Shown here in pieces: positions 10,148-57,281 of a stretch of DNA of 64,000 nucleotides. Position 1 is the stretch's first letter. Every line of letters starts with the position of its first letter. The notes below the pieces were generated by a model. That model ran no database searches. It saw nothing but the letters and a program-made list of their open reading frames with translations, and had not been told where the DNA came from. The stretch spans positions 1,824,001 through 1,888,000 of the forward strand of contig CAXXIA010000002.1 in NCBI GenBank assembly GCA_963666985.2, in the 5' to 3' direction. The DNA comes from Spirochaetia bacterium (lineage in GTDB: Bacteria; Spirochaetota; Spirochaetia; DSM-2461). A program made the translations under genes and the position numbers.

Positions 10148-10410
10148 AGCTGTTGATACGCTCCGGCCGCTAAATCTCTTTAGCGGCCTTCGGGCCGAGA
10201 AGATGGTTATTAGTTGAGTGTTATGATATTTGCAAAGAGGAAATGAGATTGAAACGGCTCGGCCAAATTTCGCTTTGGCTGCTTTTGTTGAGATGTTTTG
10301 GTTCGTAATCTGTGGTAATGTTAAAAGCGAGCGGAGGTTCTGGTAATTCCGTGGGGCAGCCAACCGGCTCCGCCGGACGCGAAACTTCGCATACCAGCGG
10401 AACGTTAAAG
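10141..10410 (+). repeat. attC site 6 (long variant)
   Basis: AAC 10145, GTT 10404; close to attC 4. Confidence 0.9.
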
Positions 10411-11250
10411 GAAATTCGGACGACGGAATAAAAAGGGTCTCTTTTTTGAAGTGTTTTTCTATGGCAGGCCTTTCCCCTTCATTTGAACAAGTAACAGAAA
10501 CAGAATCCCTTTGAGTGGTCAGATCTTTTTAACAGGCCTTCCTTCTCTTTGAACGAAACAGGTCGTTTTGATGCGGCTTTCTCCTCACCCCCCTGCGCCT
10601 TTGAGATCATCTTCAAGAAAAAAGCCAAAAGCATCGGAATAAAACTCGCTTCGGGATCAGAAGCACTTAGTGATAAGGCGGTCGGTTCGGGAGAACTTGT
10701 GTCGTGAAGGTTTATGGTATTTAACGATAATGGGAATCGCTCATGAGAAAATCCTTATCCGTTGATGGTTATCGCTTCGGGAAATGAGGCGCTTCCGGTT
10801 TGATCGGTTCGCGAGAAAAGGGGTGGTAGCCAGAGAAAAATGAAGGGATGGAGATGAGAAGAATGGAGATTGTTTTCTCCGTGGTTTTGCCTTTGAGAAG
10901 AAGGCTGAATGCTTTAAGAGAATACCGGTGTAGAAGGAGAAGACGAACATTCTGATTTACAGAATCCGTCCTGAGAGAAAGAGGTCGGGAAAGGCGAATT
11001 GCATCGGATGATGGCCTGAGTAAAGTGATGAGGCGATGAAAGGGAGAATCGGGGTCAGTATGAGAGAATGGATAAGAGATTCCGTTAAATGAGTAAAAAG
11101 CGGAAGAGGGAAGTCTGTAAAAGGATGAATGAAGAAAAGATGAGAAGGAGAAGGGCAAGAAGAATCGAAACAAAGTGTCAGGTAAAACGGCGAGGAGGGG
11201 TGAGGAGAAGGAGATGTCTTTATAGATGCGTCGTCCGAACTTCCTTTAAC
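10404..11250 (+). other. Long ORF-less cassette, type L, copy 1 (candidate ncRNA)
   Basis: About 845 bp; roughly 21-bp complementary ends; no ORF conserved among copies. Confidence 0.75.
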
Positions 11251-11455
11251 AGCTGTTGATGCGCTCCGGCCGCTAAAGGTGTTTAGCGGCCTGCGGGGCT
11301 TCGCCCAAATTTCGTTTTGGCAATGGCTCTTGCAGATGCGTTTCTGAAAGTGGTGTGATAGAGTAAAGAGCGAACTGGCTTTCTGCTAAAAGCAAGAGCG
11401 CATGCCAACCGGCTACGCCGGACGCGAAACTTCGCATACCAGCGGACCGTTAAAG
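11244..11455 (+). repeat. attC site 7
   Basis: AAC 11248, GTT 11449. Confidence 0.9.
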
Positions 11456-12291
11456 GAAATTCGGACGACGGAATAAAAAGGTCTTTTTAAGGTGTTTTTT
11501 TCTATGGCAGGCCTTTCCCCTTCATTTGAACAAGTAACAGAAACAGAATTTCTTTGAGTGTTCAGATCTTTTTAACAGGCCTTCCTTCTCTTTGAACAAA
11601 ACAGGTCGTTTTGATACGGCTTTCTCCTCACCCCCCTGCGCCTTTGAGATCATCTTCAAGAAAAAAGCCAAAAGCATCGGAATAAAACTCGCTTCGGGAT
11701 CAGAAGCACTTAGTGATAAGGCGGTCGGTTCGGGAGAACTTGTGTCGTGAAGGTTTATGGTTTTTAACGATTATGGGAATCGCTCATGAGAAAATTCTTA
11801 TCCGTTGATGGTTATCGCTTCGGGAAATGAGGCGCTTCCGGTTTGATAGGTTCGCGAGAAAAGGGGTGGTAGCCTGAGAAGAATGAAGGGATGGAGATGA
11901 GAAGAATGGAGATTGTTTTCTCCGTGGTTTTGCCTTTGAGAATAAGGCTGAATGCTTTGGAGAATACCGGTGTAGAAGGAGAAGACGAACATTCGGATTT
12001 ACAGAATCCGTCCTGAGAGAAAGAGGTCGGGAAAGGCGAATTGCATCGGATGAAGGCCTGAGTAAAGTGATGAGGTGATGAAAGGAAGAATCAGGGTCAG
12101 TATGAGAGAATGGATAGATATTCCGTTAAATGAGTAAAAAGCGGAAGAGGGAAGTCTGTAAAAGGATGAATGAAGAAAAGATGAGAAGGAGAAGGGCAAG
12201 AAGAATCGAAAAAAAGTGTCAGGTAAAACGGCGAGGAGGGGTGAGGGGAAGGAGAGGTTTTTATAGATGCGTCGTCCGAACTTCCTTTAAC
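11449..12291 (+). other. Long ORF-less cassette, type L, copy 2
   Basis: Highly similar tandem copy of 10404-11250 with small indels. Confidence 0.75.
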
Positions 12292-12492
12292 AGCTGTTGA
12301 TGCGCTTCGGCCGCTAAAGGTGTTTAGCGGCCTGCGGGGCTCCGCCCAAATTTGCCTCTGTCATAGATTTTGCTTAAGTCTGTCGCTATGGTAAGATGAG
12401 TTGTAGTTAGCGGTTGAGGCTGTGAAGATTCGCAAAATCTCCGCCAGTCGCTTCGCGAGCGGCAAACTTCGCATACCAGCGGGCCGTTTTGT
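12285..12492 (+). repeat. attC site 8
   Basis: AAC 12289, GTT 12486. Confidence 0.9.
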
Positions 12493-12564
12493 GAACAAAC
12501 CAGAAATTGAACCCAAGTCCTCTTAACGTTTGAGTTTGCTTTTTACATGTGCTATTATTTTCTT

Positions 12565-12697
12565 GTCCTTAGCAAGAAGCCTCGGCTTCATTCGGTTGGT
12601 GTATAGCCGACCTGAGCGAATTGTTAGATATCTTCGCAAGAAGAGTCCTTTTATTGAGAATAAAAGGACTCTTCTTCCTCATGCCCTTAGTAAGGAC
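12565..12697 (+). ncRNA. Retron msr-msd non-coding RNA
   Basis: Flanking inverted repeat GTCCTTAGCAAG/CTTAGTAAGGAC; two short msr hairpins; perfect 18-bp msd stem at 12638-12676; lies upstream of the effector and RT. Confidence 0.8.
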
Positions 12698-12701
12698 TTT
12701 T

Positions 12702-13625
12702 ATGAATTGGAAGAATAATCCCAATTACCTAATAGCCAAAAGGGATTTTACGTTAGCGTTTTCCACGCGATTGTTAACAAATCTATACTATTCAATGCCA
12801 AAAATTGTTTTTATTTGTGGTGGCAAGCCGACAAATTTCGTTAATCGCGAGAAGATCGAGAGATACTTTGAAAAAAATCTAGAGAGATTCTTAACCTTCC
12901 GCGCTGAGAATGCCTGGAATGTAATACAGGAAAATTTAAGAGGTACAAATGCACTAGAATTGGAAGAATGGTTAGCAGATTTTTCAGATGTTGTAATTAT
13001 ACTAGTCGAGAGCTTTGGGACAGTTGCAGAGCTTGGCGCTTTCTCTATGAATTCAATACTAAGAAAAAAGGTTCTTCCAATTTTAGATACAAAATATGAA
13101 GGAGATGATTCTTTTATAAATACTGGACCAATAAAGTGGATCGATAAAGAGTCCAAATATTCTCCTTCGATATATGTTGATTTTAGTCTGATTTTGACGT
13201 GCATGGACGAGGTTGAACAAAGAATATCAAAGCGATATTGGGAGTATCACAACGTATCCAGGACCTATGGAAAATATGGATATACCAAAAAAGTTCTTCT
13301 CTATTTCTTTATTTATGTTTTGGCCTCATTAGGGCCGATTGACATTGATGAGATAGTTGAAATAACAAATAATCTTATCTCGTATCAAGATAAGAAAAAT
13401 ATTCAGTTTATCGTATCTATCGGTGTAGCCCTAAAGATTTTTCAAAAACGTAGTGTAATGGGCAATGTGTACTATACCTGCTCAAACTATCGGAAGCTTT
13501 TCTCAAGTCCAATCACTAAAGACCACCTGAAAAGGATTCAAAATATTCGAGCGAGAAATTTATCGTCACTACTGAAAATTAAGGACTTTGTAAAAGTTAT
13601 GGACTCGGCGAATGTCAATAGTTGA
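12702..13625 (+). CDS. Retron Ec86/St85-type effector (NDT-like)
   Basis: VFICGG and LEEWLADFSDVVIILVESFGTVAELGAF motifs; overlaps RT start; ATG 12702 follows the ncRNA. Confidence 0.85.
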   Translation: MNWKNNPNYLIAKRDFTLAFSTRLLTNLYYSMPKIVFICGGKPTNFVNREKIERYFEKNLERFLTFRAENAWNVIQENLRGTNALELEEWLADFSDVVIILVESFGTVAELGAFSMNSILRKKVLPILDTKYEGDDSFINTGPIKWIDKESKYSPSIYVDFSLILTCMDEVEQRISKRYWEYHNVSRTYGKYGYTKKVLLYFFIYVLASLGPIDIDEIVEITNNLISYQDKKNIQFIVSIGVALKIFQKRSVMGNVYYTCSNYRKLFSSPITKDHLKRIQNIRARNLSSLLKIKDFVKVMDSANVNS

Positions 13626-14538
13626 ATTAATTTCGAAACAAATGTTACTAGAGGAAGATTATCTCCTCACAATATCAAAAAGTTCGTCTGCAAGATACAA
13701 ACGTTTCACTATTAAAAAACGGAATGGCGGTGATCGAGTAATTTACCAACCTTCAAAAGAATTGAAATCAATTCAAAGAGTTCTTCTCGATATGTTTTTG
13801 TCTAAACTTCCTATTCACTCTTATGCATATGCATACAAGAGTGGAACAACCACAAGAGATTGTCTTCAAAATCATTCGGAGAACAAATATTTTCTTAAAC
13901 TTGATATGCAAGACTTTTTTTACAGTATAACAAATAGCGATCTCGACAAATACTTTAAAGATATTAGGAGGGAAGACATTATACACCTCTCATCTTGTGA
14001 TATAACTTTTATCAAAGATATTTGTTGTTTTAACAAAAGACTTGTAATCGGAGCCGTTACATCTCCAACATTATCAAATGCAGTTTGTTTTAATCTAGAT
14101 CAAAAGATATCACTACTCTGTGAAAGTCTGGAGGTTGAATATAGTAGATATGCCGATGATTTAATTTTTTCCACAATGAAAAGAAATGCGTTATCAAAGC
14201 TTCCTATTCAGATTGAAGCTTTACTAAAGAAAATTTCTTATCCAAGCGCGTTACGTTTGAATCATAACAAAACTCGATATTATTCGCATAATAATGCAGT
14301 AAAGATATTAGGTCTTAAAATTACTAACACCGCAGAAATTTCGATTGGCCGACAAAAAAAACGCGAAATTAGAAGTAAAGTGTACAAGTGGAATCACCTC
14401 AATCCCGATGAAAAAAAGCATCTTCAAGGATTTTTGGCTTATTGCAGAAGTGTAGATCCGGTCTTCATTGATGAGTTGTGTCTAAAATATAAAGCAGAGC
14501 GAATTAACGATATAATCCATTATAGTGGAAAAGGCTAA
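13612..14538 (+). CDS. Retron reverse transcriptase
   Basis: IKKRNGGDRVI, LDMQDFF, GAVTSPTLSN, YSRYADD and ILGL motifs; 308 aa with no maturase or endonuclease domain. Confidence 0.93.
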   Translation: MSIVELISKQMLLEEDYLLTISKSSSARYKRFTIKKRNGGDRVIYQPSKELKSIQRVLLDMFLSKLPIHSYAYAYKSGTTTRDCLQNHSENKYFLKLDMQDFFYSITNSDLDKYFKDIRREDIIHLSSCDITFIKDICCFNKRLVIGAVTSPTLSNAVCFNLDQKISLLCESLEVEYSRYADDLIFSTMKRNALSKLPIQIEALLKKISYPSALRLNHNKTRYYSHNNAVKILGLKITNTAEISIGRQKKREIRSKVYKWNHLNPDEKKHLQGFLAYCRSVDPVFIDELCLKYKAERINDIIHYSGKG

Positions 14539-14582
14539 AATTTTTTCTGGGCTTGTTACAAAGGTAATCTAGGCGTTTGTTC

Positions 14583-14799
14583 ACAAAACAGCTGTTGATG
14601 CGCTCCAGCTGATAACGAGGTTATCAGCCTCCGGGCCTTCGGCCAAATTTCGTTTTGGCGATGGCTCTTGCAGATGCGTTTCCGAAAGTGATGTGATACC
14701 ATCAAAGGCGAACAAAGCATTGCAGTAGAAGAGCAAGAGCACATGCCAACCGGCTTTCAGCCGGACACGAAACATTCGCATAACAGCGGAACGTTAAGC
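14583..14799 (+). repeat. attC site 9
   Basis: AAC 14587, GTT 14793. Confidence 0.9.
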
Positions 14800-17410: not shown

Positions 17411-18397
17411 TTAGTCTACAGAGTAAGAAAGAAGGCCACTAGCTAAATCTGCCAGATAGATAAAGTTTCCATCACCCCAAACTCCATAGGCTGAATTGCA
17501 TTGGTCGTCGGAATCAATAAATTTCAGGTTACCCGAAGAATCAGCTTTATAGGAGAGAAGGCCACCGAAGTTATTTGCCAGATAGAGGTAGTCTCCATCA
17601 CCCCAAACTTCCATGGCGTTACCGCCCTGGTCGTCGGAATCGATAAATTCCAAGTTACCCGAAGAATCAACCTTATAGGAGAGAAGGCCACTACGGCTAT
17701 TTGCCAGATAGATGAATTCTCCATCACTCCAAACGCCATAGGCGTAACCGCCTTGATCGTCGGAATCGATAAATTCCAGGTTACCAGAAGAATCAACCTT
17801 ATAGGAGAGAAGGCCACTGCTGTAATTTGCCAGATAGATAAAGTCACCATCACCCCAAACGCCCCAGGCTGAACCGCCTTGGTCGTCAGAATCGATAAAT
17901 TCCAGGTTACCAGAAGAATCCACCATATAAGAGAGGAGACCACTATCGCTATTTGCCAAATAGATGAAGTCACCATCACCCCAAACTCCCACTGCATGAC
18001 CGCCTTGGTCGTCAGAATCGATAAATTCCAAGTTACCTGATGAATCTACATTATAGGAGAGTAGGCCACTTTCACCATCTGCCAGATAGATGTAATCTCC
18101 ATCACCCCAAACTTCAACGGCGGTTCCGCCCTTATCATCGGAATCAATAAATTCTAGATTGCCTGACGAATCTACCTTATAGGAGAGAAGGCCAATTGGG
18201 CCATTTGCAAGATAGATGAAGTCTCCATCACCCCAAACTCCATAGCCAATACCGCCTATGTCGTTGGAATCGATGAAGGTTAGATAACCTGATTTCTCGT
18301 TGTCTACATCGGATGATGGATTGCTACATCCTGCAGCGAAAATAATAAGTACCACAGAAAGAATAACATAAAAGATTTTATGTAAGGGTTGTTTCAT
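17411..18397 (-). CDS. LVIVD-like repeat (beta-propeller) lipoprotein
   Basis: IIFAAGC lipobox; about seven 42-aa repeats of VWGDGDFIYLAN...LLSYxVDSSGNLEFIDSDD. Confidence 0.82.
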   Translation of the reverse strand: MKQPLHKIFYVILSVVLIIFAAGCSNPSSDVDNEKSGYLTFIDSNDIGGIGYGVWGDGDFIYLANGPIGLLSYKVDSSGNLEFIDSDDKGGTAVEVWGDGDYIYLADGESGLLSYNVDSSGNLEFIDSDDQGGHAVGVWGDGDFIYLANSDSGLLSYMVDSSGNLEFIDSDDQGGSAWGVWGDGDFIYLANYSSGLLSYKVDSSGNLEFIDSDDQGGYAYGVWSDGEFIYLANSRSGLLSYKVDSSGNLEFIDSDDQGGNAMEVWGDGDYLYLANNFGGLLSYKADSSGNLKFIDSDDQCNSAYGVWGDGNFIYLADLASGLLSYSVD

Positions 18398-18657
18398 TAC
18401 CCCCTCCATTAACACAGATTAACCCTTAAGGAAATATAAATATATCTAATTATATATGTTGCAATAACGAACATTAACACACCCCTATGAAATAAAACAA
18501 GAGTATTGTCGATAAGGCCTTTATAGGGATAAAAAACGCGTATACGCCGATGGTCTTCCTAAAGAATTATCATCGCTTTTCATCTATATTATATGGAAAT
18601 CAAGAAGCTTTTAGTTTTAGGGCAAAACGATAAGAGGACGTTCAGATCGGAAACTTC

Positions 18658-22346: not shown

Positions 22347-22559
22347 ATTTAACAGCTGTTGATGCGCTCCGGCGTCAACTCGCGTTGCCGCCTCCGGGCC
22401 TTCGGCCAAATTTCGCTTTGGCCATGGCTCTTGCGAATGCAGATCGAGGAGTGATGTGATACAATCAAAGGCGAACACGGCATTGCTGTAGAAGAGCAAG
22501 AGCGCATGCCAACCGGCTCCGCCGGACGCGAAACTTCGCATAACAGCGGAACGTTAAAG
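22347..22559 (+). repeat. attC site 13
   Basis: AAC 22351, GTT 22553. Confidence 0.9.
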
Positions 22560-23245
22560 GAAATTTCGGACGACGGAATAAAAGGGGATTCTTTTTTTAG
22601 AGGTGTTTTTCATGGCAACCTCATTCTTTACATTTGAATAAGTAACAGAAACGGACTTTCTTTGAGTGTTCATATTTTTTTAACAGGCCTTCCTTCTCTT
22701 TGAAAGAAACAGGTCGTTTTGATGCGGCTTTCTCCTCACCCCCCTGCGCCTTTGAGATCATCTTCAACCAAGAAGCTAAAAGCATCGGAACAAAACTCAC
22801 TTCGGGATCAGAAGCACTTAGTGATAAAACGCTCAGTTCGAGAGAAGTTGTGTCGTGAAGGTATATGGTTTTTAACGATTATAGGAATCGCTCATGAGAA
22901 AATACTTATCCGTTGATGGTTGTTGCTTCGGGAAATGAGTCGCTCCTGGTTTGATTGGTTCGCGAGAAATGGGGTGGTAGCCAGAGACGAATGAATGGAT
23001 GGAGGTAAGAGAAATGGAGATTGTTTTCTCCGTGGTTTTGCCTTTGAGAATAATGCTGAATGCTTCGGATAATACTGGTGTAGATGATGAAGGAGAAGAA
23101 GAGGATTTGAAGGAATCCGTCTTGTCAGCACCGGTGATAAATTTCCTGAAAACACCGGAATAAGATTTCCGGTTTTGAGCCAATAAAAACGGGCGAGTAT
23201 CCCTAAGATGGAGTAACCATACACCCATCGAAAAGGACACTGCCC

Positions 23246-24499
23246 GTGAAGCTCCAGGAGAAACGCATGCACCAGGCTCAAGTGCTGGCCAAGGAAGGGT
23301 ACAAGCAGTACCGAATCGCCGAAATACTCGGCGTTACCGACCGAACGGTTCGAAATTACCTCAGCGGACACAGTCCCAAAATGAGCCCCAGGAAGAAACG
23401 GAAGAGCAAGCTCGACCACTTCAAATCCCATATTCGCAGTGTACTTGAGGAGGAACCGCTCTTCAATTGCGAGGTGCTTTATAAGAATCTTTGCGCCATG
23501 GGTTACACCGGAGGAATCACCATCCTCCGTGATTTCGCCAAAGAGACCCGAGATGAGATTCAGAGAGAAGTAGTTCGCCGCTTCGAAACCCAGGCCGGCT
23601 ACCAGGCACAGATGGACTGGAAGATATTGCCGAAGGAACACTGGCGAGGCGTCTACGCCTTCGTCATGGTCCTCGGCTACAGCCGGACTCCCTATGTGAG
23701 ATTCACCACCGATATGACCAGCGGCACACTGCTGGCCTGCCACCAGAAAGCCTTTGAGTATTTTGGCGGTGTTCCTCAGACTGTATTGTACGACAACATG
23801 AAAACAGCATGGGTCCACGACGGAGAAGAGTGGAAGACCAACTCCCGGTTACTGGAGTTCGCTTCCTCCTACGGTTTCTCTCCAAGACGATGCGCCGTCA
23901 GGCGTCCCCAGACCAAAGGAAAAGTAGAGAGGTTCATCGACTACCTTTCGGGTAACTTCCTTTCTCAGGCACGGCGTAGTGGCCTGAAGACGATCGAAGA
24001 ACTCAATGACGCCATTCTGCCCTGGCTGACTGAAGTTCAGCAGAAAGAGCTCCGGGACTACCAGGAAAGTCGTGCCCAGCGATATGAGGTGGAGAAATCC
24101 TTCCTGCAACCGGCACCGCCAGAGGGAGCTTTTGACTACCGTGACAGCATTCAGCTCATTGTCAGTCGAGAAGGCTCAGTCACCTACAAGACTAACAAGT
24201 ACAGCGTGCCGCCTGTATTGGTTGGTAAGAAGCTGACGCTGAAAATCGATGCGCTTTCCATGCAGGGGGAAATCCTCAATGGGAAGGTTTCCATACGGCT
24301 ATTCAATCTCCTTCCAGCTGGCTCCCGGCAGAAGGATATCCGCAATGAAGATCGGGAAGCACTCTTTACCCTGTGGGAGAAGCAGCGTAAGAAGTCGGCG
24401 AAAAAACCAGTCCGGAAGCAACAAGATGAGCAGACCATCGTCGATATCAGAAATCCTGCCTACTATGAGCGCTTTGTCGCTGTGGGAGTCTCGGTATGA
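23246..24499 (+). CDS. istA: IS21 transposase
   Basis: RFET..GYQAQMDW, LYDNMK and TKGKVER motifs. Confidence 0.93.
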   Translation: MKLQEKRMHQAQVLAKEGYKQYRIAEILGVTDRTVRNYLSGHSPKMSPRKKRKSKLDHFKSHIRSVLEEEPLFNCEVLYKNLCAMGYTGGITILRDFAKETRDEIQREVVRRFETQAGYQAQMDWKILPKEHWRGVYAFVMVLGYSRTPYVRFTTDMTSGTLLACHQKAFEYFGGVPQTVLYDNMKTAWVHDGEEWKTNSRLLEFASSYGFSPRRCAVRRPQTKGKVERFIDYLSGNFLSQARRSGLKTIEELNDAILPWLTEVQQKELRDYQESRAQRYEVEKSFLQPAPPEGAFDYRDSIQLIVSREGSVTYKTNKYSVPPVLVGKKLTLKIDALSMQGEILNGKVSIRLFNLLPAGSRQKDIRNEDREALFTLWEKQRKKSAKKPVRKQQDEQTIVDIRNPAYYERFVAVGVSV

Positions 24500-25260
24500 A
24501 TATCAAACTTGAGACCGTCACCGAGAGAATGAATTCGCTGGGTATGAGTTTCATGTCCGCAGGACTGGAATCCTTCCTGGCAGAACCCCGCCGGCAGGAA
24601 CAGACGGTACTGGATATCGTTGCCGACTTGATGGAACTTGAATACATCCCCCGTAAAGAACGGAGCGCCAAGAGCCGCTTGAAGCTTTCAGGAATGCCGG
24701 CAGTGAAAAGGCTGGAAGACTTCGACAGGGGGTGGCTCAAAGGTGGTATCACCAACCGCCAGTTTGACGAGCTCTCCTCTCTGGCCTTCATCGAGCGAAA
24801 GGAGAACGTCATTCTCATGGGTCCCAGCGGCCTGGGAAAATCTCATCTGATGCTGGCCCTGGGGCACAAGGCCTGCATGGAGGGATTCACCACCTACCAT
24901 ACCACCTGCATCGACCTCATTGAGAACCTGGTTCTTGCCCGAGAGAACAACCGGCTCAAGCGTCGGCTGGTATGGCTCCGAAAACCGCACCTGCTTCTCA
25001 TCGATGAAGTCGGTTACGAGAAGCTGACACCCGAACAGGCTAATCTTTTCTTCCAGGTTGTGAATGCCCGGTATGAACAGGGGAGTATGATCATTACGAC
25101 GAACAAGCCATTTGGCAGATGGGCGGAGATAATGAGTGATGAGGCTGTTGCCAGTGCAACCCTGGACCGTCTGCTTCACCATGCTCATATCCTGAGTCTT
25201 CAAGGAGACTCGTACCGAATGAAGGATCGGTTGAAAGCGGGAGTCGTTGACTTCCTTTGA
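24496..25260 (+). CDS. istB: IS21 helper ATPase
   Basis: GPSGLGKS, LLLIDEVGY and LDRLLHH motifs. Confidence 0.93.
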   Translation: MNIKLETVTERMNSLGMSFMSAGLESFLAEPRRQEQTVLDIVADLMELEYIPRKERSAKSRLKLSGMPAVKRLEDFDRGWLKGGITNRQFDELSSLAFIERKENVILMGPSGLGKSHLMLALGHKACMEGFTTYHTTCIDLIENLVLARENNRLKRRLVWLRKPHLLLIDEVGYEKLTPEQANLFFQVVNARYEQGSMIITTNKPFGRWAEIMSDEAVASATLDRLLHHAHILSLQGDSYRMKDRLKAGVVDFL

Positions 25261-25596
25261 CGCCCAAAACCGGAAAAACTAAATCGGTGAAATCCGGAAA
25301 TGTTTCGTCGGTGTTGACACGTCTTGAGAGAAAGTGGTCGGAAGAGGCGAATTGCATCGGATGATGGCCTGAATAAAGTGATAAGGCGATGAAAGGGAGA
25401 ATAGCGTTGAGTATGAGAGAATGGAGAGATGTTCGGATGAATTGGTCAAAAACGAAAGAGGGAAGTCTGTAAAAGGGTGAATGAAGAAAAGATGAAAAGG
25501 AGAAGGCCAAGAGGAATCCGATTAAGGGGTTCAGGTAAAAAACGGCGAGGAGGGGTGAGGAGAAGGAGGTTATTATAGATGTGTCGTCCGAACTTC

Positions 25597-25868
25597 CTTT
25601 AACAGCTGTTGATGCGCTCCGGCCGCTAAAGGTGTTTAGCGGCCTTGGGCCGAGCGATGGGAAACTATGAGTTTTATGATTTTTGTAAAAGGGAAAAATC
25701 AAATTGGTTTGGCTCGGCCAAATTTCGCTTTGGCAATGGCTCTTGCAGATGCGTTCTTGGAAGTTGTGTGATAGGCTGAAGAGCGAACGGGTTTTCTGCT
25801 AAAAGCAAGAGCACATGCCAACCGGCTACGCCGGCCGCGAAACTTCGCATACCAGCGGGCCGTTTCCT
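25597..25868 (+). repeat. attC site 14 (long variant)
   Basis: AAC 25601, GTT 25862. Confidence 0.9.
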
Positions 25869-27987: not shown

Positions 27988-30219
27988 TTAATTCCGTACA
28001 CGTGCTCTATCTGAAATTCTTAGATCACTTCTATTCCATCCAAGAGAATTCATTTCCTTTACCATCTCATTAAATATAGGTATGTTTTTTTCATGATCTC
28101 TTACACTAACTAATAAAGCAAACTTTTGAGGCTCTAATTGCATATTATGTGTTTCAAATCTTCTCTGAAGATTCAACTTCAGCCTCCAGATGTCACCACT
28201 ACACCCCCGAGGAAAAATTCTTCTATATACTTTCACTGGGGACCATTTAAATCCGTGTTCGATTTGTTCTGATTCATATAATTTATTGATATCTTTAGGA
28301 TCAATTGGAACTTTCTTTGAATGTTTTCCATTTTTAAAAATTCCTAATGAGACTTCAATATTTGATCGGCAATACTCTGCTAGAAATGACGAGTCAGTAG
28401 GTGGTGAATATACCAAAGTCATTAATAATTCTCCATGGAACTTACCGTCAGCTCGTAATGATTCGGGTAGAGGAAAAGGTTGGCGGCTAAATTCTAAAGA
28501 ATCATATAATTCTCCCTCAAAAATCATAGTGCAAGTAAATGGATCACCAGTTAAGAATTTAATTGGTTCAAGCGGTTTTCCAAAACCATAGTATTTTACT
28601 TCTTCTGCAGTTCGTATTGGTGAATCTAGTACCGCACTATGAATGACCAAAGCCTTTATTAATTCTTTTGAAATATCACCAGATATTAATTTTGTGTACT
28701 GTGAAGCTATACTTGAAACTATAGGTGTAGAGAAACTAGTCCCAATATTTTCAGAATGCTTTGAGTCTGCAGAAACCGAAAGAACACCTGTTTGAGAATA
28801 GTTACCATTTTTATCACAATTTCCACCATAATGAATAATTTCTGGTTTTGGAATGAAACTCGGTCCGGGGCCTCTTCTAGAAAAAGGGGAAGGCTCTTCA
28901 TTTCGAACTAAAGTAATTGGTGTAAATTTATGTGTTATTGAACCAACAGATAACGCCCGAGATGAATCACCAGGTGTAGAAATTCTATCATCAATACTTA
29001 TATCACTAGGTGGCCAGTTTCGGAGAGGTATATTTGTGTAATTACCTGCTGATATTACAAATAATACATTATAAGTATCTTGTAATTCATCAAAATAACT
29101 TGCTAGTGAAGAATATGAGAACGAATCAGTAGGCGTTGAGGCTCCTAAAGAAAGATTCCAAATACGTACATAAGGAAATGATTTTATAGAATCTTCAATG
29201 GTCTCTTTGAGATCCTCTTCTGAAATTCCATTTTTGGGAGATAAAGCGCGGATGTCAATGATTTTAGCATGTACATTAGGGAAACGTGGATCGGAGTGGT
29301 TTAAACTATGATTATTAGCTATTAATCCTCCGACAAAAGAACCATGCTCAAAATCCGTTTCTTTATCTATAATCCTTTTTTTCCTAGCAACAACCCAATC
29401 CGATAGAGCTTTATTGTCATCATGAATACCTGTATCAATAATTCCAACTATTGGGTAATCGACTGATTTATCAGGTTTTGGAAAGAGTTGCTCATGCAAA
29501 TCTCCAATTGTTATATTAGTCGTTTTTAATGTTTCATATTGAGGGAACAAAGACACAGTTCTAACAGGAGGGAAAATGCATAATTTTGGAATTGTTTGAT
29601 TGTCATTAATTTCTGCCTTATATACAATTTGGTTTTTCCCATAGTTAATTTTTTTATATTTTAGAATGCCAATTTCTTCAAATACAGATAATAAACATTT
29701 ATTAATTTTATTATTTAACTCAGTATCCTTAAAATCGAATAAACTAATTTTTATCTCTCTGAAATTTTCAATAGAAATACTTGAATCAATACGATCAAAT
29801 TGAGAATAATCTAAAAAGCTTTCAAGTGATGAGATATTTGCGATATTTTCTTTTGTAGTCCCTTCCTCTATAATTCTATTCAGTTTTTCAAGACCGATCT
29901 CATTTACTCTTATTAGAAGCTTTCCAAATCCATAATCACCAATAATTGGACATGTAGAGTTATTTAATAGCGATGATGGACGATGACTTTTTGCAATAGC
30001 CTCTTTCTTTAATTCAACTCGTGCAATATTAGGTATGTTTGGCCATTTATGAAATGTTTTTTTATATTTCTGGTTAATGCTTGAAATTTGATTTGAATAT
30101 AATGAGCGCAATGACGGTGTAACATTTGAAAAAACTTTTTTAGGACCGCCAGATGAATAGGGCTTATGGTGATCTCGTTCAGAAATCGTAATTACCTGAA
30201 GGGGATATTCATCTGACAT
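27988..30219 (-). CDS. ietS: S8 subtilase-family peptidase, IetS-like
   Basis: Catalytic triad motifs IIDTG, EHGSFV and GTSFSTP; downstream of an AAA ATPase. Confidence 0.85.
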   Translation of the reverse strand: MSDEYPLQVITISERDHHKPYSSGGPKKVFSNVTPSLRSLYSNQISSINQKYKKTFHKWPNIPNIARVELKKEAIAKSHRPSSLLNNSTCPIIGDYGFGKLLIRVNEIGLEKLNRIIEEGTTKENIANISSLESFLDYSQFDRIDSSISIENFREIKISLFDFKDTELNNKINKCLLSVFEEIGILKYKKINYGKNQIVYKAEINDNQTIPKLCIFPPVRTVSLFPQYETLKTTNITIGDLHEQLFPKPDKSVDYPIVGIIDTGIHDDNKALSDWVVARKKRIIDKETDFEHGSFVGGLIANNHSLNHSDPRFPNVHAKIIDIRALSPKNGISEEDLKETIEDSIKSFPYVRIWNLSLGASTPTDSFSYSSLASYFDELQDTYNVLFVISAGNYTNIPLRNWPPSDISIDDRISTPGDSSRALSVGSITHKFTPITLVRNEEPSPFSRRGPGPSFIPKPEIIHYGGNCDKNGNYSQTGVLSVSADSKHSENIGTSFSTPIVSSIASQYTKLISGDISKELIKALVIHSAVLDSPIRTAEEVKYYGFGKPLEPIKFLTGDPFTCTMIFEGELYDSLEFSRQPFPLPESLRADGKFHGELLMTLVYSPPTDSSFLAEYCRSNIEVSLGIFKNGKHSKKVPIDPKDINKLYESEQIEHGFKWSPVKVYRRIFPRGCSGDIWRLKLNLQRRFETHNMQLEPQKFALLVSVRDHEKNIPIFNEMVKEMNSLGWNRSDLRISDRARVRN

Positions 30220-30229
30220 AATAATGCTC

Positions 30230-36517: not shown

Positions 36518-36733
36518 GCTAAACAGCTGTTGATGCGCTCCGGCCGCTAAAGGTGTTTAGCGGCCTCCGGGGCTCCGCCCAAATTTCGTTTTGGCATGGC
36601 GTCTTGCAGATGCGTTTCCGAAAGTGATGTGATACAGTCAAAGAGAAACACGGTTTTGCAGAAGAAGAGCAAGAGCGCATGCCAACCGGCTACGCCGGAC
36701 ACGAAACATTCGCATAACAGCGGACCGTTTGAT
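36518..36733 (+). repeat. attC site 18
   Basis: AAC 36522, GTT 36727. Confidence 0.9.
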
Positions 36734-36755
36734 GAACAACACAAAAGGGAATTAC

Positions 36756-37733
36756 ATGAGAAATATTGCTATCTTAGTCTTCGGTCTTTTAGTTTTTTTT
36801 AGTTGCACTACAACTGATTTGGGGAATATATCTAGTCGTAATGAGCAAAGTATAACACAAGAAGAAGCAACTGAAATAAATGTTGGTACATATTCTCCTT
36901 GTGAAGACTTCTTGATGAAAAATAGAATAGAGGGCTTAAGGATAGATAAAATTGAACGAGAAATTAACTATAATGGTAGAATTGATAATATTGATATCAC
37001 ATACAACTACAATTCAAATGGTAGAATTGAATCGATCTTTCGTCTGAATACATCTGGCGAATTGAGTTATTCAGTGAATGCTAATCTTTATTATTATTCC
37101 AACACAGATGAATTGGTTGGTTGGACAACTTTTAATATACTTGATGTTGATGAAAGAAATATAAATTTTGATAGCATATCAGATGAAGAATTACCGGTAA
37201 ATCTTCAATACATTATTACGGCTATAATAGATAGTAATTCAAGTGATGTAATTTACAATTTTAGCAAACTTAATGAGAATCATAACTGGACTAGACCAAT
37301 TAATAAAAATCAATTTTATCAACTAGACTATCATGTTTATTCAATTGAAGAAAATCAGAATGCTATCGAAGAAACAACGTTCTTGTTTAGAGACAATATT
37401 TACTCATATTCAATTCCAGTTCTTGCAGGAGAGAATAATTATGTTCCAGCAGAAATAGTAGAAATAAATTCTACAAGCAATTCTGAGCAAATAGTCAATA
37501 TACTTATAGGAGAGCAGTCCTACAACATTGAAAGATTAAGAAATAACGAAAATGAATTTGTATCAACTTGTAGAAATAGTAAAAACGAAGTTGTAATGAT
37601 AAGAATAAATGATTTTTTTGAAGAACAAAATATTCAAACAATTCGAACAGAGACAGCAGATGGAGTTTTTTCTATTACAGATACAATATTCTGGGACGAA
37701 GTTGATTCAAACTACTCGTTCTTTCCCTTCTAG
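36756..37733 (+). CDS. Hypothetical lipoprotein, copy 2
   Basis: Translation identical to 8702-9679. Confidence 0.8.
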   Translation: MRNIAILVFGLLVFFSCTTTDLGNISSRNEQSITQEEATEINVGTYSPCEDFLMKNRIEGLRIDKIEREINYNGRIDNIDITYNYNSNGRIESIFRLNTSGELSYSVNANLYYYSNTDELVGWTTFNILDVDERNINFDSISDEELPVNLQYIITAIIDSNSSDVIYNFSKLNENHNWTRPINKNQFYQLDYHVYSIEENQNAIEETTFLFRDNIYSYSIPVLAGENNYVPAEIVEINSTSNSEQIVNILIGEQSYNIERLRNNENEFVSTCRNSKNEVVMIRINDFFEEQNIQTIRTETADGVFSITDTIFWDEVDSNYSFFPF

Positions 37734-37754
37734 CAATATAATTGAATGTTGTTC

Positions 37755-37965
37755 ATCAAACAGCTGTTGATGCGCTCCGGCGTCAACTAGCGTTGCCGCC
37801 TCCGGGGCTTCGCCCAAATTTCGTTTTGGCCATGGTTCTTGCAGATGCGTTCCTGGAAGTTGTGTGATAGGCTCAAATACGAACAGGCTTTCTGATGAAG
37901 TGCAAGAACACATGCCAACCGGCTGCGCCGGACACGAAACTTCGCATACCAGCGGAACGTTATTC
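37755..37965 (+). repeat. attC site 19
   Basis: AAC 37759, GTT 37959. Confidence 0.9.
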
Positions 37966-46433: not shown

Positions 46434-46646
46434 AGATAACAGCTGTTGATGCGCTCCGGCGCCAACTCTCGTTGTCGCCTCCGGGGCTCCGCCCAAATTT
46501 CGTTTTGTCATGACTCTTGCAGATGCGTTTCCGAAAGTGATGTGATACCATCATCAGAGAACAAGGCATTGCTGTAAAATGGCAAGAGCACATGCCAACC
46601 GGCTACGCCGGACACGAAACGTTCGCATAACAGCGGGCCGTTAAAG
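46434..46646 (+). repeat. attC site 22
   Basis: AAC 46438, GTT 46640. Confidence 0.9.
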
Positions 46647-47484
46647 GAAATTCGGACGACGGAATAAAATGGGTCTCTTTTTTGAAGTGTTTTTCTATGG
46701 CAGGCCTTTCCCCTTCATTTGAACAAGTAACAGAAACAGAATTTCTTTGAGTGTTCAGATCTTTTTAACAAGCCTTCCTTTTCTTTGAACGAAACAGGCC
46801 GTTTTGAAGCGGCTTTCTCCTCACCCCCCTCGCCTTTGAGATCATCTTCAAGAAAAAAACCAAAAGCATCGGAATAAAACTCGCTTCGGGATCAGAAGCA
46901 CTTAGTGATAAGGCGGTCGGTTCGGGAGAACTTGTGTCGTGAAGGTTTATGGTTTTTAACGATTATGGGAATCGCTCATGAGAAAATCCTTATCCGTTGA
47001 TGGCTATCGCTTCGGGAAATGAGGCGCTTCCGGTTTGATCGGTTCGCGAGAAAAGGGGTGGTAGCCTGAGAAGAATGAAGGGATGGAGATGAGAAGAATG
47101 GAGATTGTTTTCTCCGTGGTTTTGCCTTTGAGAATAAGGCTGAATGCTTTAAGAGAATACCGGTGTAGAAGGAGAAGACGAACATTCGGATTTACAGAAT
47201 CCGTCCTGAGAGAAAGAGGTCGGGAAAGGCGAATTGCATCGGATGAAGGCCTGAGTAAAGTGATGAGGCGATGAAAGGGAGAATAGGGGTCAGTACGAGA
47301 GAATGGATAGATATTCCGTTAAATGAGTAAAAAGCGGAAGAGGGAAGTCTGTAAAAGGATGAATGAAGAAAAGATGAGAAGGAGAAGGGCAAGAAGAATC
47401 GAAACAAAGGGTCCGGCAAAATGGCGAGGAGGGGTGAGGAGAAGGAGAGGTCTTTATAGATGCGTCGTCCGAACTTCCTTTAAC
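46640..47484 (+). other. Long ORF-less cassette, type L, copy 4
   Basis: Highly similar to copies 1 and 2. Confidence 0.75.
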
Positions 47485-53745: not shown

Positions 53746-53954
53746 CGATAACAGCTGTTGATGCGCTCCGGCTGATAACGGGGTTATCAGCCTTCGGGGC
53801 TTCGCCCAAATTTGCCTCTGTCATAGATTTTGCGTAAGTCTGACGTTGTGGTAAGATGAGTTGCAGTATGCGGTTGATATTGTGAAGAAACGCAAAATCT
53901 CCGCCAGTCGCCTTCGGCGAACGGCAAACTTCGCATAACAGCGGAACGTTAAAG
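53746..53954 (+). repeat. attC site 27
   Basis: AAC 53750, GTT 53948. Confidence 0.9.
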
Positions 53955-54285
53955 GAAATTCGGACGACGACAATGAGCGACCAGGACATCCTTTACATTT
54001 TAGGTTCAGGACATCGTTTACACTAAACAAGTTTAAACGAAGCATTTGAACCCATCAACAGAGGGTATAAATGCAAATGTTTTCCGATCAATTTCTCCTA
54101 ATCTTAAATTGTCAAACCAGACGGTAAAAGTCTCATCTTCATTTTCTCGAAGACCAACTTGGTATCCAACAAAGACATAACTGACGAAAATCCTGTGTCG
54201 GTCTATGGTCACCGCCCCACGATTATTTATCATTCTCACCTCATATCCGGATGGATATGGAATTCCCAGACTTCTATAGACACCT

Positions 54286-55104
54286 CTAGCTTGCAATAGA
54301 ACCCTTTTCAAATTCAACCGGAGAGATCCCGCCAAGATGCTTGTGGCGACGCTTCCGGTTGTAAAATGCTTCAATATAATCGAACACATCAGACCGTGCT
54401 TCATCCCTTGTTCGATATGTCTTCCGGCGAATCCGTTCCTTCTTCAAACTACCAAAGAATGATTCCATGGCTGCATTGTCCCAGCAGTTTCCACGACGGC
54501 TCATACTTCTCTTCAGTCCGTTGTCACGACAGAATCTAATCCAGTCACCGCTGTCAAATTGGCCGCCCTGATCGGAATGGATAAGGACTTTGTTTTTCGG
54601 GCGTCTCTTCCAAACAGCTGTCAGTAAGGCCTGGATAACCAGATCACGATGAAGCGTGTTCTGCATGGACCAGCCGATGATTCTCCTGGAATAAAGATCC
54701 ATGACAACTGCGAGATACAGCCAACCTTCATGAGTTCGAATATAGGTAATATCCGTTGTCCACGCAGTATCGGGTTCTTCTACATTAAAGTCCTGCTGGA
54801 GATGGTTCGGGGCAGCCTGGGACGGTTTTCCATACTTGAATCGACGCATCTTGAAGCCGACCATCGCCCTGATACCATGCTCTCGCATGATTCTGGCTAC
54901 TCGATGGACGCTGCAGGATTCTCCGTCTTCCATCAAATCCTCATGGATTCGTGGACTTCCGTAGACCTGATCGCTTTCTTCGTAGAAGTGGCGAATCTTC
55001 TTCAACAACCGAATGTCTTCAATCTTTCTCTCTGATTGAGGTTTTCTCAACCATGCATAGAATCCGCTTCGATTGACATCGAGAACCCGGCACATAGTCT
55101 TCAC
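54286..55104 (-). CDS. IS3 transposase OrfB
   Basis: WTTDITY, HSDQG and CWDNAAMESFF motifs. Confidence 0.92.
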   Translation of the reverse strand: MKTMCRVLDVNRSGFYAWLRKPQSERKIEDIRLLKKIRHFYEESDQVYGSPRIHEDLMEDGESCSVHRVARIMREHGIRAMVGFKMRRFKYGKPSQAAPNHLQQDFNVEEPDTAWTTDITYIRTHEGWLYLAVVMDLYSRRIIGWSMQNTLHRDLVIQALLTAVWKRRPKNKVLIHSDQGGQFDSGDWIRFCRDNGLKRSMSRRGNCWDNAAMESFFGSLKKERIRRKTYRTRDEARSDVFDYIEAFYNRKRRHKHLGGISPVEFEKGSIAS

Positions 55105-55142
55105 TCTGAATTCAGCCCTGTAGTTTTTGATGAAGGCATATC

Positions 55143-55430
55143 TTACTCGGACTGACTCGCGAAGTATGCCGCGGCTTTTTTTAAGATATCTCGCTCTTCC
55201 TGCACCCGCCGCAGCTCTGCTTTCAGCCTGGCATTCTCGACTTCAAGCTCCTTATTTGCTTTTGCCGATTCTGGTGCTTTTGGATTTCGAGAATCGGCCT
55301 TCAGCCACTTATAGAGGCTATGGGTTGAGACTCCTATACGCTCAGAGACTTCCTTGATGGAGTAGCCCCGCTCAACAACCTGGCCGACTGCTTCTGCCTT
55401 GAATTCGTCCGAATATCGCGGACTTCCCAT
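55143..55430 (-). CDS. IS3 transposase OrfA
   Basis: RYSDEFKAEAV...ERDILKKAAAYF. Confidence 0.9.
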   Translation of the reverse strand: MGSPRYSDEFKAEAVGQVVERGYSIKEVSERIGVSTHSLYKWLKADSRNPKAPESAKANKELEVENARLKAELRRVQEERDILKKAAAYFASQSE

Positions 55431-56548
55431 GATGTACACTCCTTCCTCATTTTGAGTTTAGCAGTGTCTATCAAAAGCTGGGAATTCCAATAAATCACCT
55501 GTGGAATCTGAGAAGGGAAGGGCCGTTTGGACTTTGTGTAAACACTTCCGGGAGTCTGCATTTTAAGAGCTTCATGAGGTCGAACACTGTTGAACTGATT
55601 TCTCCAGACATCAAAATGCGCCTGATGTTCAGAGAGGTTACCCTGAATCTGTCCCTGTAATTCCCGTTTGATATCGGCATGCATTCTCTCATGCCCCCCG
55701 TTCTCACAAGGTCGTCCCGGAGTGATGCGATCAAGTTCGATTCCCAAGGCCAACCACCAAACACTTAAGCGTGTGAGCCCCAGCAGTCCCTTCATGGAGG
55801 CAAAGGGAGGTCCGTTGTCGGACCTAATGACTCTGGGCATTCCATAGATGGAAAAGAGCTTCTCAAACTCGGTTCTAACTTCTTGTGTGTCAGCCTTTTG
55901 GAGTGCTTTGATGGTAAAGATGTATTTGGAAAACTCATCCCGAACGGTCAAAGGTTCACATCGTTCTCCCTCGGGAGTATACCACCAGCCTTTGAAATCC
56001 ACGGTCCAGATGTCATTCGGCTGCTTGGCTTGAAGACGGCTCTGGATTCGCTGAGATTTATTCTGCCGGCGTTTCTTTCGGTGCACTACCAGACCTGCTT
56101 TATCCAGGATGCGTTTCACGGTGGTCAGACTTGGACTCTCCTGGTGGGGATGTGTCTTCTGGTAGATATCGAGGATTTTCTTTGGCCCCCATTTGGTGTG
56201 TCGTGATTTGATTCGGACGATGTCGCAGATGACATTCTCCGGTGTCTGGTGAGGGCAGATACGAGGTTTCCTGGTTCTTTCATTCAGGCCGGCGAGCCCT
56301 TCCTGAATAAACCGGTTTTTCCATTTAAGGCCTGTCGGCCGGGAGATCCCGTACTCAGCACAGAGGTCTTTCATACAGACATGGGGATCCATGGCCTTGA
56401 GGGCGAACTCGAATTTGACGTCCATAATATTGGTCTCCTTCCACGGCATAATCAGCACCTCGATAAGGGAAAGTACTGATCATTTTAGTCCTTGTCGTGT
56501 AAAGGATGTCCTGGTACTCTCGTGTAAACGATGTCGTGGACCCGTACC

Positions 56549-57281
56549 GACAAGAAAGGGGCTTCTTTTTTTGAGGTGTTTTTCTATGGCAACTCTTTCC
56601 CTTTTATTTGGCTAAGTACGTGAACCTAAACCCCTTCAAGTGTGAATTTCTTTTTTGAGGCCTTCCACCTCTGTAAAAGATAAAGGTCAATTTAATCCGG
56701 CTTTCTCCTCACCCCAACACCATAACAAACATCTTTATATGAGAATCCAGAACGCATCGGAACATTTCTCGCTTCATTCTTAGATACTTTTAGTGCGAAG
56801 GCGGTCAGTTCCAGAGAAGTTGTCAGAGAGACTTTTATGGTTATTAAAAAGAATGGGAGTTGCTCATAGTTGAATCCTTCGCAGTTAATAAATCTCGCAT
56901 CGAAAAAGGATACGCTTATGAATTATTGGGTTCAAGAAGATTGGGTGGTAGCCTAAGAGTATGAATTAATGAATTTACTGTTCATGGAGATTGTTATGGC
57001 CGTGGTTCGCTATTAATGGTTTAGGCAGAACGCTTTAAGAGCATGCCTGTGTATATGGAGAAGATGAACAAAAGGTTTTATAGAATCCGTTCTGATAGAA
57101 GAGTGGTCTTGGAAGGCTAATCGCATCAGAAGATGTCCTTGTAAAGTGAAGAGGCGGGGAAAGTGTAAATACTGGTCAGTATGCTGAGAATAAAAAATGT
57201 TCCGATGAAAGAATCAAAACGGAAGAGGGGGTGAGGAGCAAGAGAGGTTGGTAAGGGCTCGTCGTCCGAACTTCCTTTAAC
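56549..57281 (+). other. Long ORF-less cassette, type L, divergent copy 5 (5' end at 53948-53973)
   Basis: Colinear but diverged; keeps the terminal and internal complementary motifs; lacks about 80 bp near the 3' end. Confidence 0.72.

Follow-up and report, generated by a model that had tools for sequence, protein, structure and literature searches.

A multicopy gene-less cassette family with one conserved inner inverted repeat in an integron-like array of a Spirochaetia bacterium

The elements of ~845 nt that recur in this DNA carry no gene and are best read as a new addition to the multicopy non-coding integron cassettes, a class already described. The genome holds eight copies, every one within a single 87-attC cassette array, and five of them lie in the window, by which we mean the whole stretch of 64,000 nucleotides analysed. 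On balance, and with moderate confidence, we favour the reading that the resident integrase maintains and amplifies the family, which rides in the array largely as a selfish passenger. The earlier note had offered a selfish cassette as one alternative to a large structured non-coding RNA, and this alternative fits best, since all eight copies lie in the array and neither a coding signal nor excess covariation was found. The copies, their attC boundaries and the arms of an inner repeat (P2, below) support an ORF-less, amplified integron cassette with one constrained inner inverted repeat. What counts in favour of the selfish reading is that gene-less families are the most repeated ones, that the ends are generic, that a coding signal is missing and that copies have been hit by insertion sequences.

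The five repeats of the window (n = 5), reported earlier with starts at 10404, 11449, 22553, 46640 and 53948, are real:

10404..11250, + strand: copy 1, gene-less cassette, intact (847 nt, GTT to AAC)
11449..12291, + strand: copy 2 (843 nt), 96% identical, in tandem with copy 1
22553..25603, + strand: copy 3, 86% identical to copy 1, split by an IS21
46640..47484, + strand: copy 4 (845 nt), intact, 97% identical to copy 1
53948..57281, + strand: copy 5, 70% identical, with an 89-nt deletion, broken after its 26th base

Copies 1, 2 and 4 are intact, copy 3 measures 849 nt without its 2.2-kb IS21, and the deleted copy 5 measures 754 nt without an IS481-like element and a nested IS3. The same array contains three further copies beyond the limits of the window. 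The eight fall into at least three lineages with identities of 69-97%, and are colinear over their full length with indels mostly of single bases. Conserved positions clump (125 runs versus 154 expected, matched by 0 of 5000 shuffles), and 12 islands of at least 7 nt are invariant across all three lineages. That this is the most abundant cassette, as the earlier note had it, holds in the window, whereas array-wide a 243-bp gene-less family, with eight full copies, is equally abundant; the two top-repeated families, with eight full copies each, are the two without a gene. Two sequencing runs of one sample gave contigs that span the cassette in full, some of them copy-3-type variants, and the IS21 junction of copy 3 is present in one of these runs. 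Two other runs contributed one 151-nt contig each, matching part of the cassette, and such small shares were not taken as evidence of habitat. Among the runs listed as containing the cassette none is of RNA, which carries no information on its expression.

The array comprises 87 left and 87 right attC ends, all on one strand, and the family is found in this same-oriented array beside a tyrosine integrase, the gene of which lies near 1.777 Mb of the contig and is divergent from the array. Its members are bounded like integron gene cassettes, with a GTT core at the start and an attC of their own (AAC ... GTT, an imperfect hairpin) at the end; in the last family copy of the array the attC is reduced to its left part. 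Integron integrases are recognised by an IntI-specific additional domain (PMC9668308, available part), which the integrase of this array lacks: over the IntI-specific region it has 22 residues where its best solved match, VchIntIA (2A3V), has 65 (~43 shorter), and its profile score of 220 bits is below the TIGR02249 cut-off of 265. Because this domain is missing, the array would at the level of its platform be called integron-like, and because the integrase is short over the IntI region and scores below the cut-off, single-strand recombination is here an assumption.

11244..11455, + strand: attC of copy 1, ~205 nt, R'' to R'

The stem of this attC is extended as in an excised circle because copy 2 follows.

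The two ends of the cassette are complementary to each other and form a terminal stem:

10404..10425, + strand: 5' arm of P1, common to nearly all array cassettes
11229..11250, + strand: 3' arm of P1, complementary at 21 of 22 positions, with a mismatch at position 11

The end pairing of about 21 bp described for the family is present, but it is no family trait, since it is shared by almost all cassettes of the array. The 21-mer end motif occurs nine times in the window against none in 100 shuffles, and in 93-100% of 59 distinct cassettes start positions 1-10 and 12-14 complement the end, compared with 26-46% at positions 12-14 in a control with mismatched ends. In all cassette types the match runs over 14-16 bp and tolerates the position-11 mismatch, and the complementarity of the family is at the top of this general range. 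Five protein-coding cassettes in three related genomes show end complementarity at 12-15 of 16 positions, and a sixth row (11 of 16) was apparently mis-delimited. The terminal helix belongs to cassette ends generally throughout the array and is an ordinary recombination signal. In the canonical attC R box the cassette start GTT... likewise complements its own ...AAC end, but over 7 bp (PMC5027507, available part) and not over the length observed here.

For the R box the predicted pairing is 0.98 in a circle versus 0.12-0.30 next to a foreign cassette, and the circle form is computed to be favoured by 20-23 kcal/mol in all four non-tandem family copies, a gain reached by five of 66 other cassettes (the 66 include copy 3). 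The 243-bp gene-less family has an ordinary stem (median 7.8 kcal/mol) yet is equally amplified, so copy number is not set by stem strength alone. In these computations the family's ends complete the attC stem of a circular or tandem cassette, and the stem is stronger than in most cassettes. By analogy with established integron biology, the integrase would then excise one strand and the well-folded attC of the circle would be reinserted at attI. Replicative resolution could keep the original in place, so that copies pile up, and old copies would decay through IS insertion and deletion. Excision and integration of the family are read from the dispersed and tandem copies only.

The earlier observation that no ORF is shared needs correcting, since one short frame is open in six of the eight copies:

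11089..11259, + strand: 56-codon Arg/Lys-rich frame in the purine-rich end, ending in the attC, judged spurious

In copy 3 this frame is broken, though partly retained, and in copy 5 it is deleted. It was judged spurious because purifying selection has left no trace in it and searches gave no homologue. It is very doubtful that the family is the remnant of a protein gene or a cassette coding for a small basic peptide. Such an origin would be in line with the open frame, with an uneven distribution of substitutions over codon positions (28/12/17) in a 466-nt block between copies 1 and 3, and with a complementary minus-strand frame in the last 160 nt (one of six frames tested) in which seven of 10 close-copy changes are synonymous; some gene-less Vibrio cassettes are also pseudogenes (PMC11014356, available part). 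However, none of 10 single-base changes among close copies is synonymous in the 56-codon frame, substitutions relative to copy 5 are flat over codon positions, and each of the eight copies has at least four stops per frame. Nor did the 134-aa and 56-aa frames, the two searched, have a homologue in a large protein collection; none of seven translated frames occurs in the protein collection, and matches to the genome's other ORFs did not reach a meaningful E-value. Codon periodicity is lacking (p 0.98, 0.93 and 0.16). The ORFs of copy 1, up to 134 codons and on the pyrimidine-rich strand, are chance-like, and its long frames, which exceed the limit of Boucher 2006 (no ORF longer than 150 bp), are not common to the lineages; within the body of copy 5 no ORF exceeds 42 codons. 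The absence of a protein match, full-length colinearity and the absence of a synonymous-site pattern are among the features by which non-coding paralogous cassettes are recognised, and the family has all three. A pseudogene of an LVIVD-repeat gene or of another gene of the genome was rejected for want of a translated match, and an internal tandem duplication of ~125 nt was rejected with a score of 12.0 versus a null 95th percentile of 13.0.

Inside the cassette two further inverted repeats are nested within the terminal stem:

10579..10599, + strand: 5' arm of P2, 13-bp core at 10579-10591, reaching ~20 bp with a bulge
11189..11209, + strand: 3' arm of P2, core at 11197-11209
56755..56767, + strand: 5' arm of P3, a nested 13-bp helix, in copy 5
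57195..57207, + strand: 3' arm of P3 in copy 5

The 13-bp inner pair had been noticed before and is confirmed, and its retention in copy 5 (12 of 13 core pairs) bears out the claim that the pairing is largely kept there. In that copy the P2 arms differ at one of 26 positions (two 13-nt arms) against a background identity of 68%, and the chance of two random windows being so conserved is 0.0004-0.0008. P2 is beyond chance by helix length (p 0.003-0.017), and its score tops all 38 comparable cassettes in six of the eight copies, the best-scoring repeat of copy 5 being P3. Because both arms are conserved beyond chance and the score is above that of comparable cassettes, the inner inverted repeat is under some constraint that pure drift leaves unexplained. 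This repeat of 13-20 bases is the only special feature specific to the family, and it is too little for a structured RNA. P3 is perfect in copy 5 only, and its equivalent in copy 1 (10632-10644) is partly broken. The three helices lie on different diagonals, which rules out a single degenerate palindrome. The A>G change in the P2 core of copy 2 is present as described, but as an argument for the + strand through a G-U pair it is one change; two other core changes (in copy 5 and in the copy at window-equivalent 110890) break a pair on both strands, and strand assignment from G-U pairs was dropped with this single informative change.

The principal proposal of the earlier note, a large structured non-coding RNA, is not supported: P1 is generic, covariation is as in shuffles, the lineages have no stable local fold in common and mosaics do equally well. 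We consider it quite improbable that the family is a long structured RNA closed by the nested long-range helices P1, P2 and P3. P2 is conserved beyond chance, and copy 5 combines it with a perfect 13-bp P3, both with predicted pair probabilities of 0.95-1.0 as RNA; in P3, one both-sided change from T-A to C-G occurs in copies 3 and 5. On both strands the consensus fold energy is better than that of every shuffle (12 of 12), but it includes the invariant helices P1 and P2. Small RNAs from ORF-less cassettes are also on record (review PMC8876359, available part). Against this, P1 is generic to array cassettes, no compensatory change occurs in the P2 core in any of the eight copies, its predicted pairing in copies 1 and B is 0.00-0.02 whichever strand is folded, and P3 has two broken pairs in four of the eight copies. 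The check for covariation on the aligned copies gave both-sided changes within the range of shuffles, with 17 on the + strand compared with 7-22 in 12 shuffles and 10 on the - strand compared with 5-14, and with three lineages these covariation and fold tests have low power. Mosaics folded as well as native copies or better in 28, 42, 17 and 15 of 48 trials. None of the 120-nt windows has a stable fold in all three lineages; one stable window has z = -2.7 in copy 1 and -3.1 in copy 3, but -0.2 in copy 5. Fold z-scores on the + strand are -1.3 for copy 1 and +0.8 for copy 5, and the ncRNA-like fold of a retron in the next cassette gives, for comparison, z = -5.0. An Rfam search, which the earlier note had named as a check, matched no described family (Rfam 15, gathering score and E up to 10).

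Without an Rfam match the idea of a group II intron remnant was rejected. Identity with a retron msr-msd was also rejected, since the retron beside copy 2 comes with an msr-msd-like fold of its own (12565-12697); an attC separates the family from that retron, and no reverse transcriptase was noted beside the other window copies. GOLLD, ROOL, OLE and HEARO are RNAs of several hundred bases, tied to mobile DNA and with purine-rich stretches, and they display dense covariation and many stable local helices. The family resembles them in size, mobile-DNA association and purine-rich stretches, but lacks the dense covariation, the stable local helices and an Rfam match.

Our guess is that P2 belongs to a DNA-level element and not to a large folded RNA; it may provide paired binding sites, or a single-strand clamp joining two attC sites. 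As single-stranded DNA, P2 is predicted at 0.00-0.03 in copies 1, A and B, which counts against the favoured reading. One may speculate that the cassette is a scaffold of ~800 nt of RNA or ssDNA in which the extended attC stem, P2 and P3 are nested, bring two attC sites together and promote excision and re-insertion of the element by structure alone. We regard this as rather improbable. Were it true, it would concern an integron-like system with an integrase lacking the IntI insert and with 14-16-bp end stems in all cassettes.

A purine-rich 3' half had also been described. The bias is strong in the last ~200 nt (77-78% A+G in seven family rows versus 42-64% in 68 cassettes outside the family with 600 nt or more), but over the whole 3' half it is ~69%, and 61% in copy 5. 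It is possible, though unlikely, that the family is a regulatory cassette in which an internal promoter, antisense or terminating activity tunes the neighbours and the islands are promoter or protein-binding elements. Most gene-less Vibrio cassettes tested show promoter activity (PMC11014356, available part), as do ORF-less cassettes of Treponema (PMC6557892, available part), and the 12 invariant islands would suit such a role, only P1 and P2 having a Watson-Crick partner in a scan of shared helices of at least 7 bp. However, a consensus scan for sigma-70-like sites, other sigma factors lying outside it, found none in copy 1 where 0.7 were expected; the body of copy 5 has none either, its sole site falling in the attC, and with ~845 nt the family exceeds the Vibrio examples in length (491-666 bp; PMC11014356, available part). 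A regulatory role is compatible with the selfish reading.

Three of the eight copies carry IS insertions, two of which are in the window:

23123..25319, + strand: IS21 in copy 3; istA 23246-24499, istB 24496-25260; 5-bp target duplication
53974..56548, - strand: IS481-like element and nested IS3 in copy 5

That the family itself descends from a non-autonomous transposon (a MITE or IS remnant), with P2 as terminal inverted repeats and an old insertion into a small cassette, is scarcely probable. P2 is an imperfect inverted repeat of ~20 bp, invariant and not covarying, which is the look of transposase-binding ends. Against this, the inner segment is absent from the genome outside the cassette, all eight copies being at cassette positions; a reading of the flanking sequence brought no target duplication to light, the parts on either side match the inner segment in conservation, and none of 84 parsed cassettes represents an empty site.

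The closest parallel to a selfish gene-less cassette is found in the non-coding paralogous cassettes of Vibrio superintegrons, which likewise have no ORF and no protein match, occur as many paralogues per array, are homologous over their whole length, are lineage-restricted and are not pseudogenes (PMC1382264, available part). Boucher et al. 2006, in the same available part, already set a selfish element against a promoter or an RNA. The present family differs in its phylum (a spirochaete-like host), its length of ~845 nt and its paralogues down to 67-70%, and the available part of PMC1382264 makes no mention of a conserved inner inverted repeat like that of this family. The promoter-bearing cassettes of Vibrionaceae and Treponema are also gene-less and in large chromosomal arrays, but the family is longer and no sigma-70 consensus was found in it (PMC11014356 and PMC6557892, available parts). 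The Xanthomonas integron-cassette RNA sRNA-Xcc1 is a precedent for an RNA from an ORF-less cassette (cited in the available parts of PMC6557892 and PMC8876359), from which the family, known from sequence alone, differs in having neither an Rfam match nor a conserved local fold.

Homologues were sought in genome samples and with exact patterns, and the outcome is 'not found' rather than 'absent'. With copy 1 as query a BLAST-type search matched none of 60 relatives, and among 400 genomes of the class 21 had only matches of 21-58 nt (E 0.0016-0.01); a family profile gave nothing better than E 0.01 at 19 loci from those 21 genomes, and nothing in 23 loci, mostly around related integrases or attC-like sites. 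Copy 5 matched two of 400 phylum genomes over 35-39 nt (E 3e-4 to 5e-4). Exact-pattern scans gave no match in either of two metagenome scans and one non-homologous match each in a genome collection and in viral contigs; plasmids (copy 1 query) and phages (copy 5 query) gave none. In the literature (titles and abstract openings, supplements and most subscription journals being outside the scope) we found no description of the family, of cassette-end stems of 14-16 bp or of an IS481-like element at a fixed distance from attC.

Why gene-less cassettes top the repeat counts in large arrays has been debated since 2006, with selfish, promoter and RNA explanations. With this family the question could be tested in a lineage other than Vibrio, on natural variants whose identities span 97% to 67% and on a single defined inner repeat open to mutation. 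Features of the array as a whole may matter more, namely the end matches of 14-16 bp next to an integrase that lacks the IntI insert. The landing of insertion sequences at a fixed attC distance may likewise matter more than the cassette family itself: the IS481-like element lies 25-27 nt from the attC (crossover) in all 10 of its array copies, that is in copy 5 and in nine other cassettes.

All five window copies of the ~845-nt gene-less cassette were confirmed at the starts proposed in the earlier note (10404, 11449, 22553, 46640 and 53948), and three more (copies A, B and C) lie elsewhere in the same array, with none elsewhere in the genome. Six copies share 94-97% identity, while copy 3 stands at 86% and copy 5 at 67-70%. 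Copy 3 is interrupted by an IS21, and copy 5, which has lost 89 nt, by an IS481-like element containing a nested IS3; the same IS481-like element has removed the 5′ end of the last copy of the array. The purine richness described for the 3′ half holds for the last 200 nt, which are 77-78% purine versus 42-64% in 68 other cassettes. The family is a new sequence family in the known class of non-coding integron cassettes, since the genomes and collections searched (sampled relatives, exact-pattern scans) yielded no homologue. In Vibrio, Boucher et al. 2006 reported cassettes that are non-coding, paralogous and restricted to a lineage, with up to 45 copies, and discussed the alternatives that are weighed here. 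Our family probably works alike and agrees with their tests as described there, save for the strict ORF-length rule, which is exceeded by chance frames on the pyrimidine-rich strand.

The array occupies ~157 kb of contig CAXXIA010000002.1 (about 1.779-1.936 Mb), including the whole window. Its attC-like ends, 87 left and 87 right, all lie on one strand and yielded 84 parsed cassettes. Its other cassettes include toxin-antitoxin pairs, restriction enzymes, a SIR2-pAgo fusion, IetAS and a type II-A retron.

Features of the array (window coordinates unless stated)
1204-2037 of the integrase locus L001, contig near 1.777 Mb, minus strand: tyrosine recombinase (array integrase) gene, 277 aa, at the array head, divergent
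3101-6172, minus strand: defence cassette, SIR2-pAgo fusion, 1023 aa
8174-8417, 9905-10147 and a stub at 41266: second gene-less family, 243 nt; 8 full array copies, 94-100% identity
8673-9707 and 36727-37761: coding cassette present twice, 334-356 aa, without Pfam match
12486-14589: type II-A retron cassette (NDT plus RT, St85-like), msr-msd-like fold at 12565-12697
14818, 31914, 41292, 53974, 62129 and five more array sites, one orientation: left ends of the IS481-like element
17411-18415 and 57577-58485 (minus strand): two LVIVD beta-propeller cassettes with 126-bp (42-residue) repeats
27988-31438, minus strand: defence cassette, IetA/IetS pair
59292-59408, minus strand: ALIL frameshift pseudoknot adjoining an IS3-type transposase gene

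The array integrase finds its best match among solved structures in VchIntIA, but at 220 bits it stays below the integron-integrase threshold (TIGR02249 cut-off 265). Where VchIntIA has 65 residues it has 22, about 43 fewer over the IntI-specific region, and thereby lacks the additional insert presented in PMC9668308 as the defining feature of IntI. Homologues occur in 8 of the 37 family genomes. The host is, judging by its genes, spirochaete-like, with three FlaA matches over the cut-off and none in 14 control genomes. The attC sites are long (e.g. window 11244-11455), falling into classes of ~200 nt and ~265 nt besides a few shorter sites (126-145 nt), and their right end may resemble dif-type Xer arms.

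Both the end motif and the 13-bp pair inside the cassette lie where they had first been placed, far above chance. Terminal pairing is, however, no special trait of the family. After removal of five cassettes with broken or mis-called ends and collapse of repeats, 59 distinct end pairs remained. In 93-100% of these, start positions 1-10 and 12-14 are complementary to the cassette end; the share is 44% at position 11, and 83% and 73% at positions 15 and 16. With mismatched ends it is 26-46% at positions 12-14. Nearly all cassettes, coding or not, show 14-16 bp of such complementarity, tolerating the mismatch at position 11 and differing in sequence from one another. Five protein-coding cassettes of three related genomes have 12-15 of 16 end positions complementary. 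Because the same pairing recurs across the array and in related genomes, the terminal stem is the cassette's recombination end. It is longer than the canonical R box, given as 7 bp in PMC5027507. In the family 21 of 22 positions pair against an array median of 17; 8 of the 59 reach 20, and in one protein-coding cassette pairing runs to 29. Folding of the bottom strand with DNA parameters predicted an R-box pairing probability of 0.98 in the circular form for all cassette groups and of about 0.3 in the array context. The predicted gain on circularization was 20-23 kcal/mol in all four non-tandem family copies, a level found in 5 of 66 other cassettes (copy 3 being among the 66). Such long stems may bear on cassette formation and recognition in this array.

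Among perfect helices in the bodies of copies 1 and 3, the inner repeat (10579-10591/11197-11209) is the longest (p 0.003-0.017, from three window sizes with 300 shuffles each; 0/300 in one setting). If a bulge is allowed, it extends to ~20 bp. In six of the eight copies, all but copies 2 and C, the top score for a long-range inverted repeat exceeds those of all 38 comparable cassettes, and the arms of copy 5 have changed at 1 of 26 positions (empirical chance 0.0004-0.0008). The repeat is thus real and was kept in copy 5, but it is not enough to argue for an RNA: the three changes seen in the core comprise one G-U pair and two mismatches, none compensatory. Predicted pairing of the repeat is near zero on both strands in copies 1 and B. 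Copies A and 3 reach 0.2 on the plus and 0.96-0.97 on the minus strand, and copy 5 reaches 1.0. A further nested helix pairs perfectly along 13 bp in copy 5. Copies 3, B and C form 9 pairs of it, and the remaining four copies each have two pairs disrupted. The one both-sided change in this helix is the best evidence for the RNA idea, yet a single event.

For the element as a whole, tests for the large structured ncRNA first suggested were negative. The five-copy consensus fold has 17 both-sided changes (7-22 in 12 shuffles) and 101 broken cells (78-115) on the plus strand, and 10 both-sided changes (5-14) on the minus strand. Its energy beats 12/12 shuffles, but the fold contains the invariant terminal stem and inner repeat. 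Whole-copy folding (20 shuffles each) gave z of -1.3 for copy 1 and +0.8 for the copy 5 body on the plus strand, and -2.8 for copy 1 on the minus strand, terminal stem included; in contrast, the ncRNA-like fold of the retron in the next cassette, with 12-nt outer arms and an 18-bp hairpin, reached z = -5.0. No 120-nt window was stable in all three lineages, native copy pairs folded no better than composition-matched mosaics (28, 42, 17 and 15 of 48 equal or better), and Rfam had zero matches within the cassette. Conserved positions are clustered, but the longest run of 18 is unexceptional (p 0.19), and the clustering can be explained by the alignment itself or by recombination between copies, which is visible as shared patches. 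With three lineages, and hence low power, a structured RNA is unsupported by these tests.

Coding signal was absent: substitutions against copy 5 are flat over codon positions, indels among copies are mostly single-base, and every frame has several stops. The claim that no ORF is shared overlooked a 56-codon basic frame open in six of the eight copies. Among close copies this frame shows ten single-base changes, every one of them non-synonymous, and protein searches found no homologue. Two weak hints toward coding concern frames without an intact gene: the unevenness of one 466-nt block when copies 1 and 3 are compared (overall p 0.16), and a minus-strand frame, one of six, in which 7 of 10 changes are synonymous.

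The family has cassette anatomy, is multicopy only in the array, is non-coding and has a strong predicted attC stem in the circle. Its most likely working is that of the selfish cassette, offered originally as the alternative. The integrase would excise and reinsert it, and replication would resolve the junction, as described in PMC5027507, so that copies accumulate without host benefit, older ones presumably decaying. The inner repeat might act at the DNA level, as a pair of binding sites or as a clamp within single-stranded DNA. Counting against this mechanism, the 243-bp gene-less family is equally repeated with an ordinary stem, DNA folding predicts no pairing of the inner repeat in copies 1, A and B, and the IntI-defining insert is missing from the integrase. 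The main rival would be a promoter role, for which other gene-less cassettes offer precedent, although sigma-70-type consensus scans of copy 1 and the copy 5 body, not in themselves decisive, were negative. That the cassette is a self-folding scaffold appears improbable.

The IS481-like element encodes a 397-aa transposase just below the NCBIfam cut-off and has 4-5-bp duplications where present. Ten of the 13 left ends found lie in the array, all ten in the same orientation, 25-27 nt past the attC crossover on its downstream side, and with no common target sequence. This is reminiscent of the IS1202-family subgroup reported to insert 5 bp from Xer sites (bioRxiv 10.1101/2022.12.17.520857). The 243-nt family carries a terminator-like hairpin on the minus strand. 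Finally, a contig of run X4 matches window 10655-10771 but is preceded on the 5′ side by 34 bases that differ, and may represent a variant or chimeric family copy.
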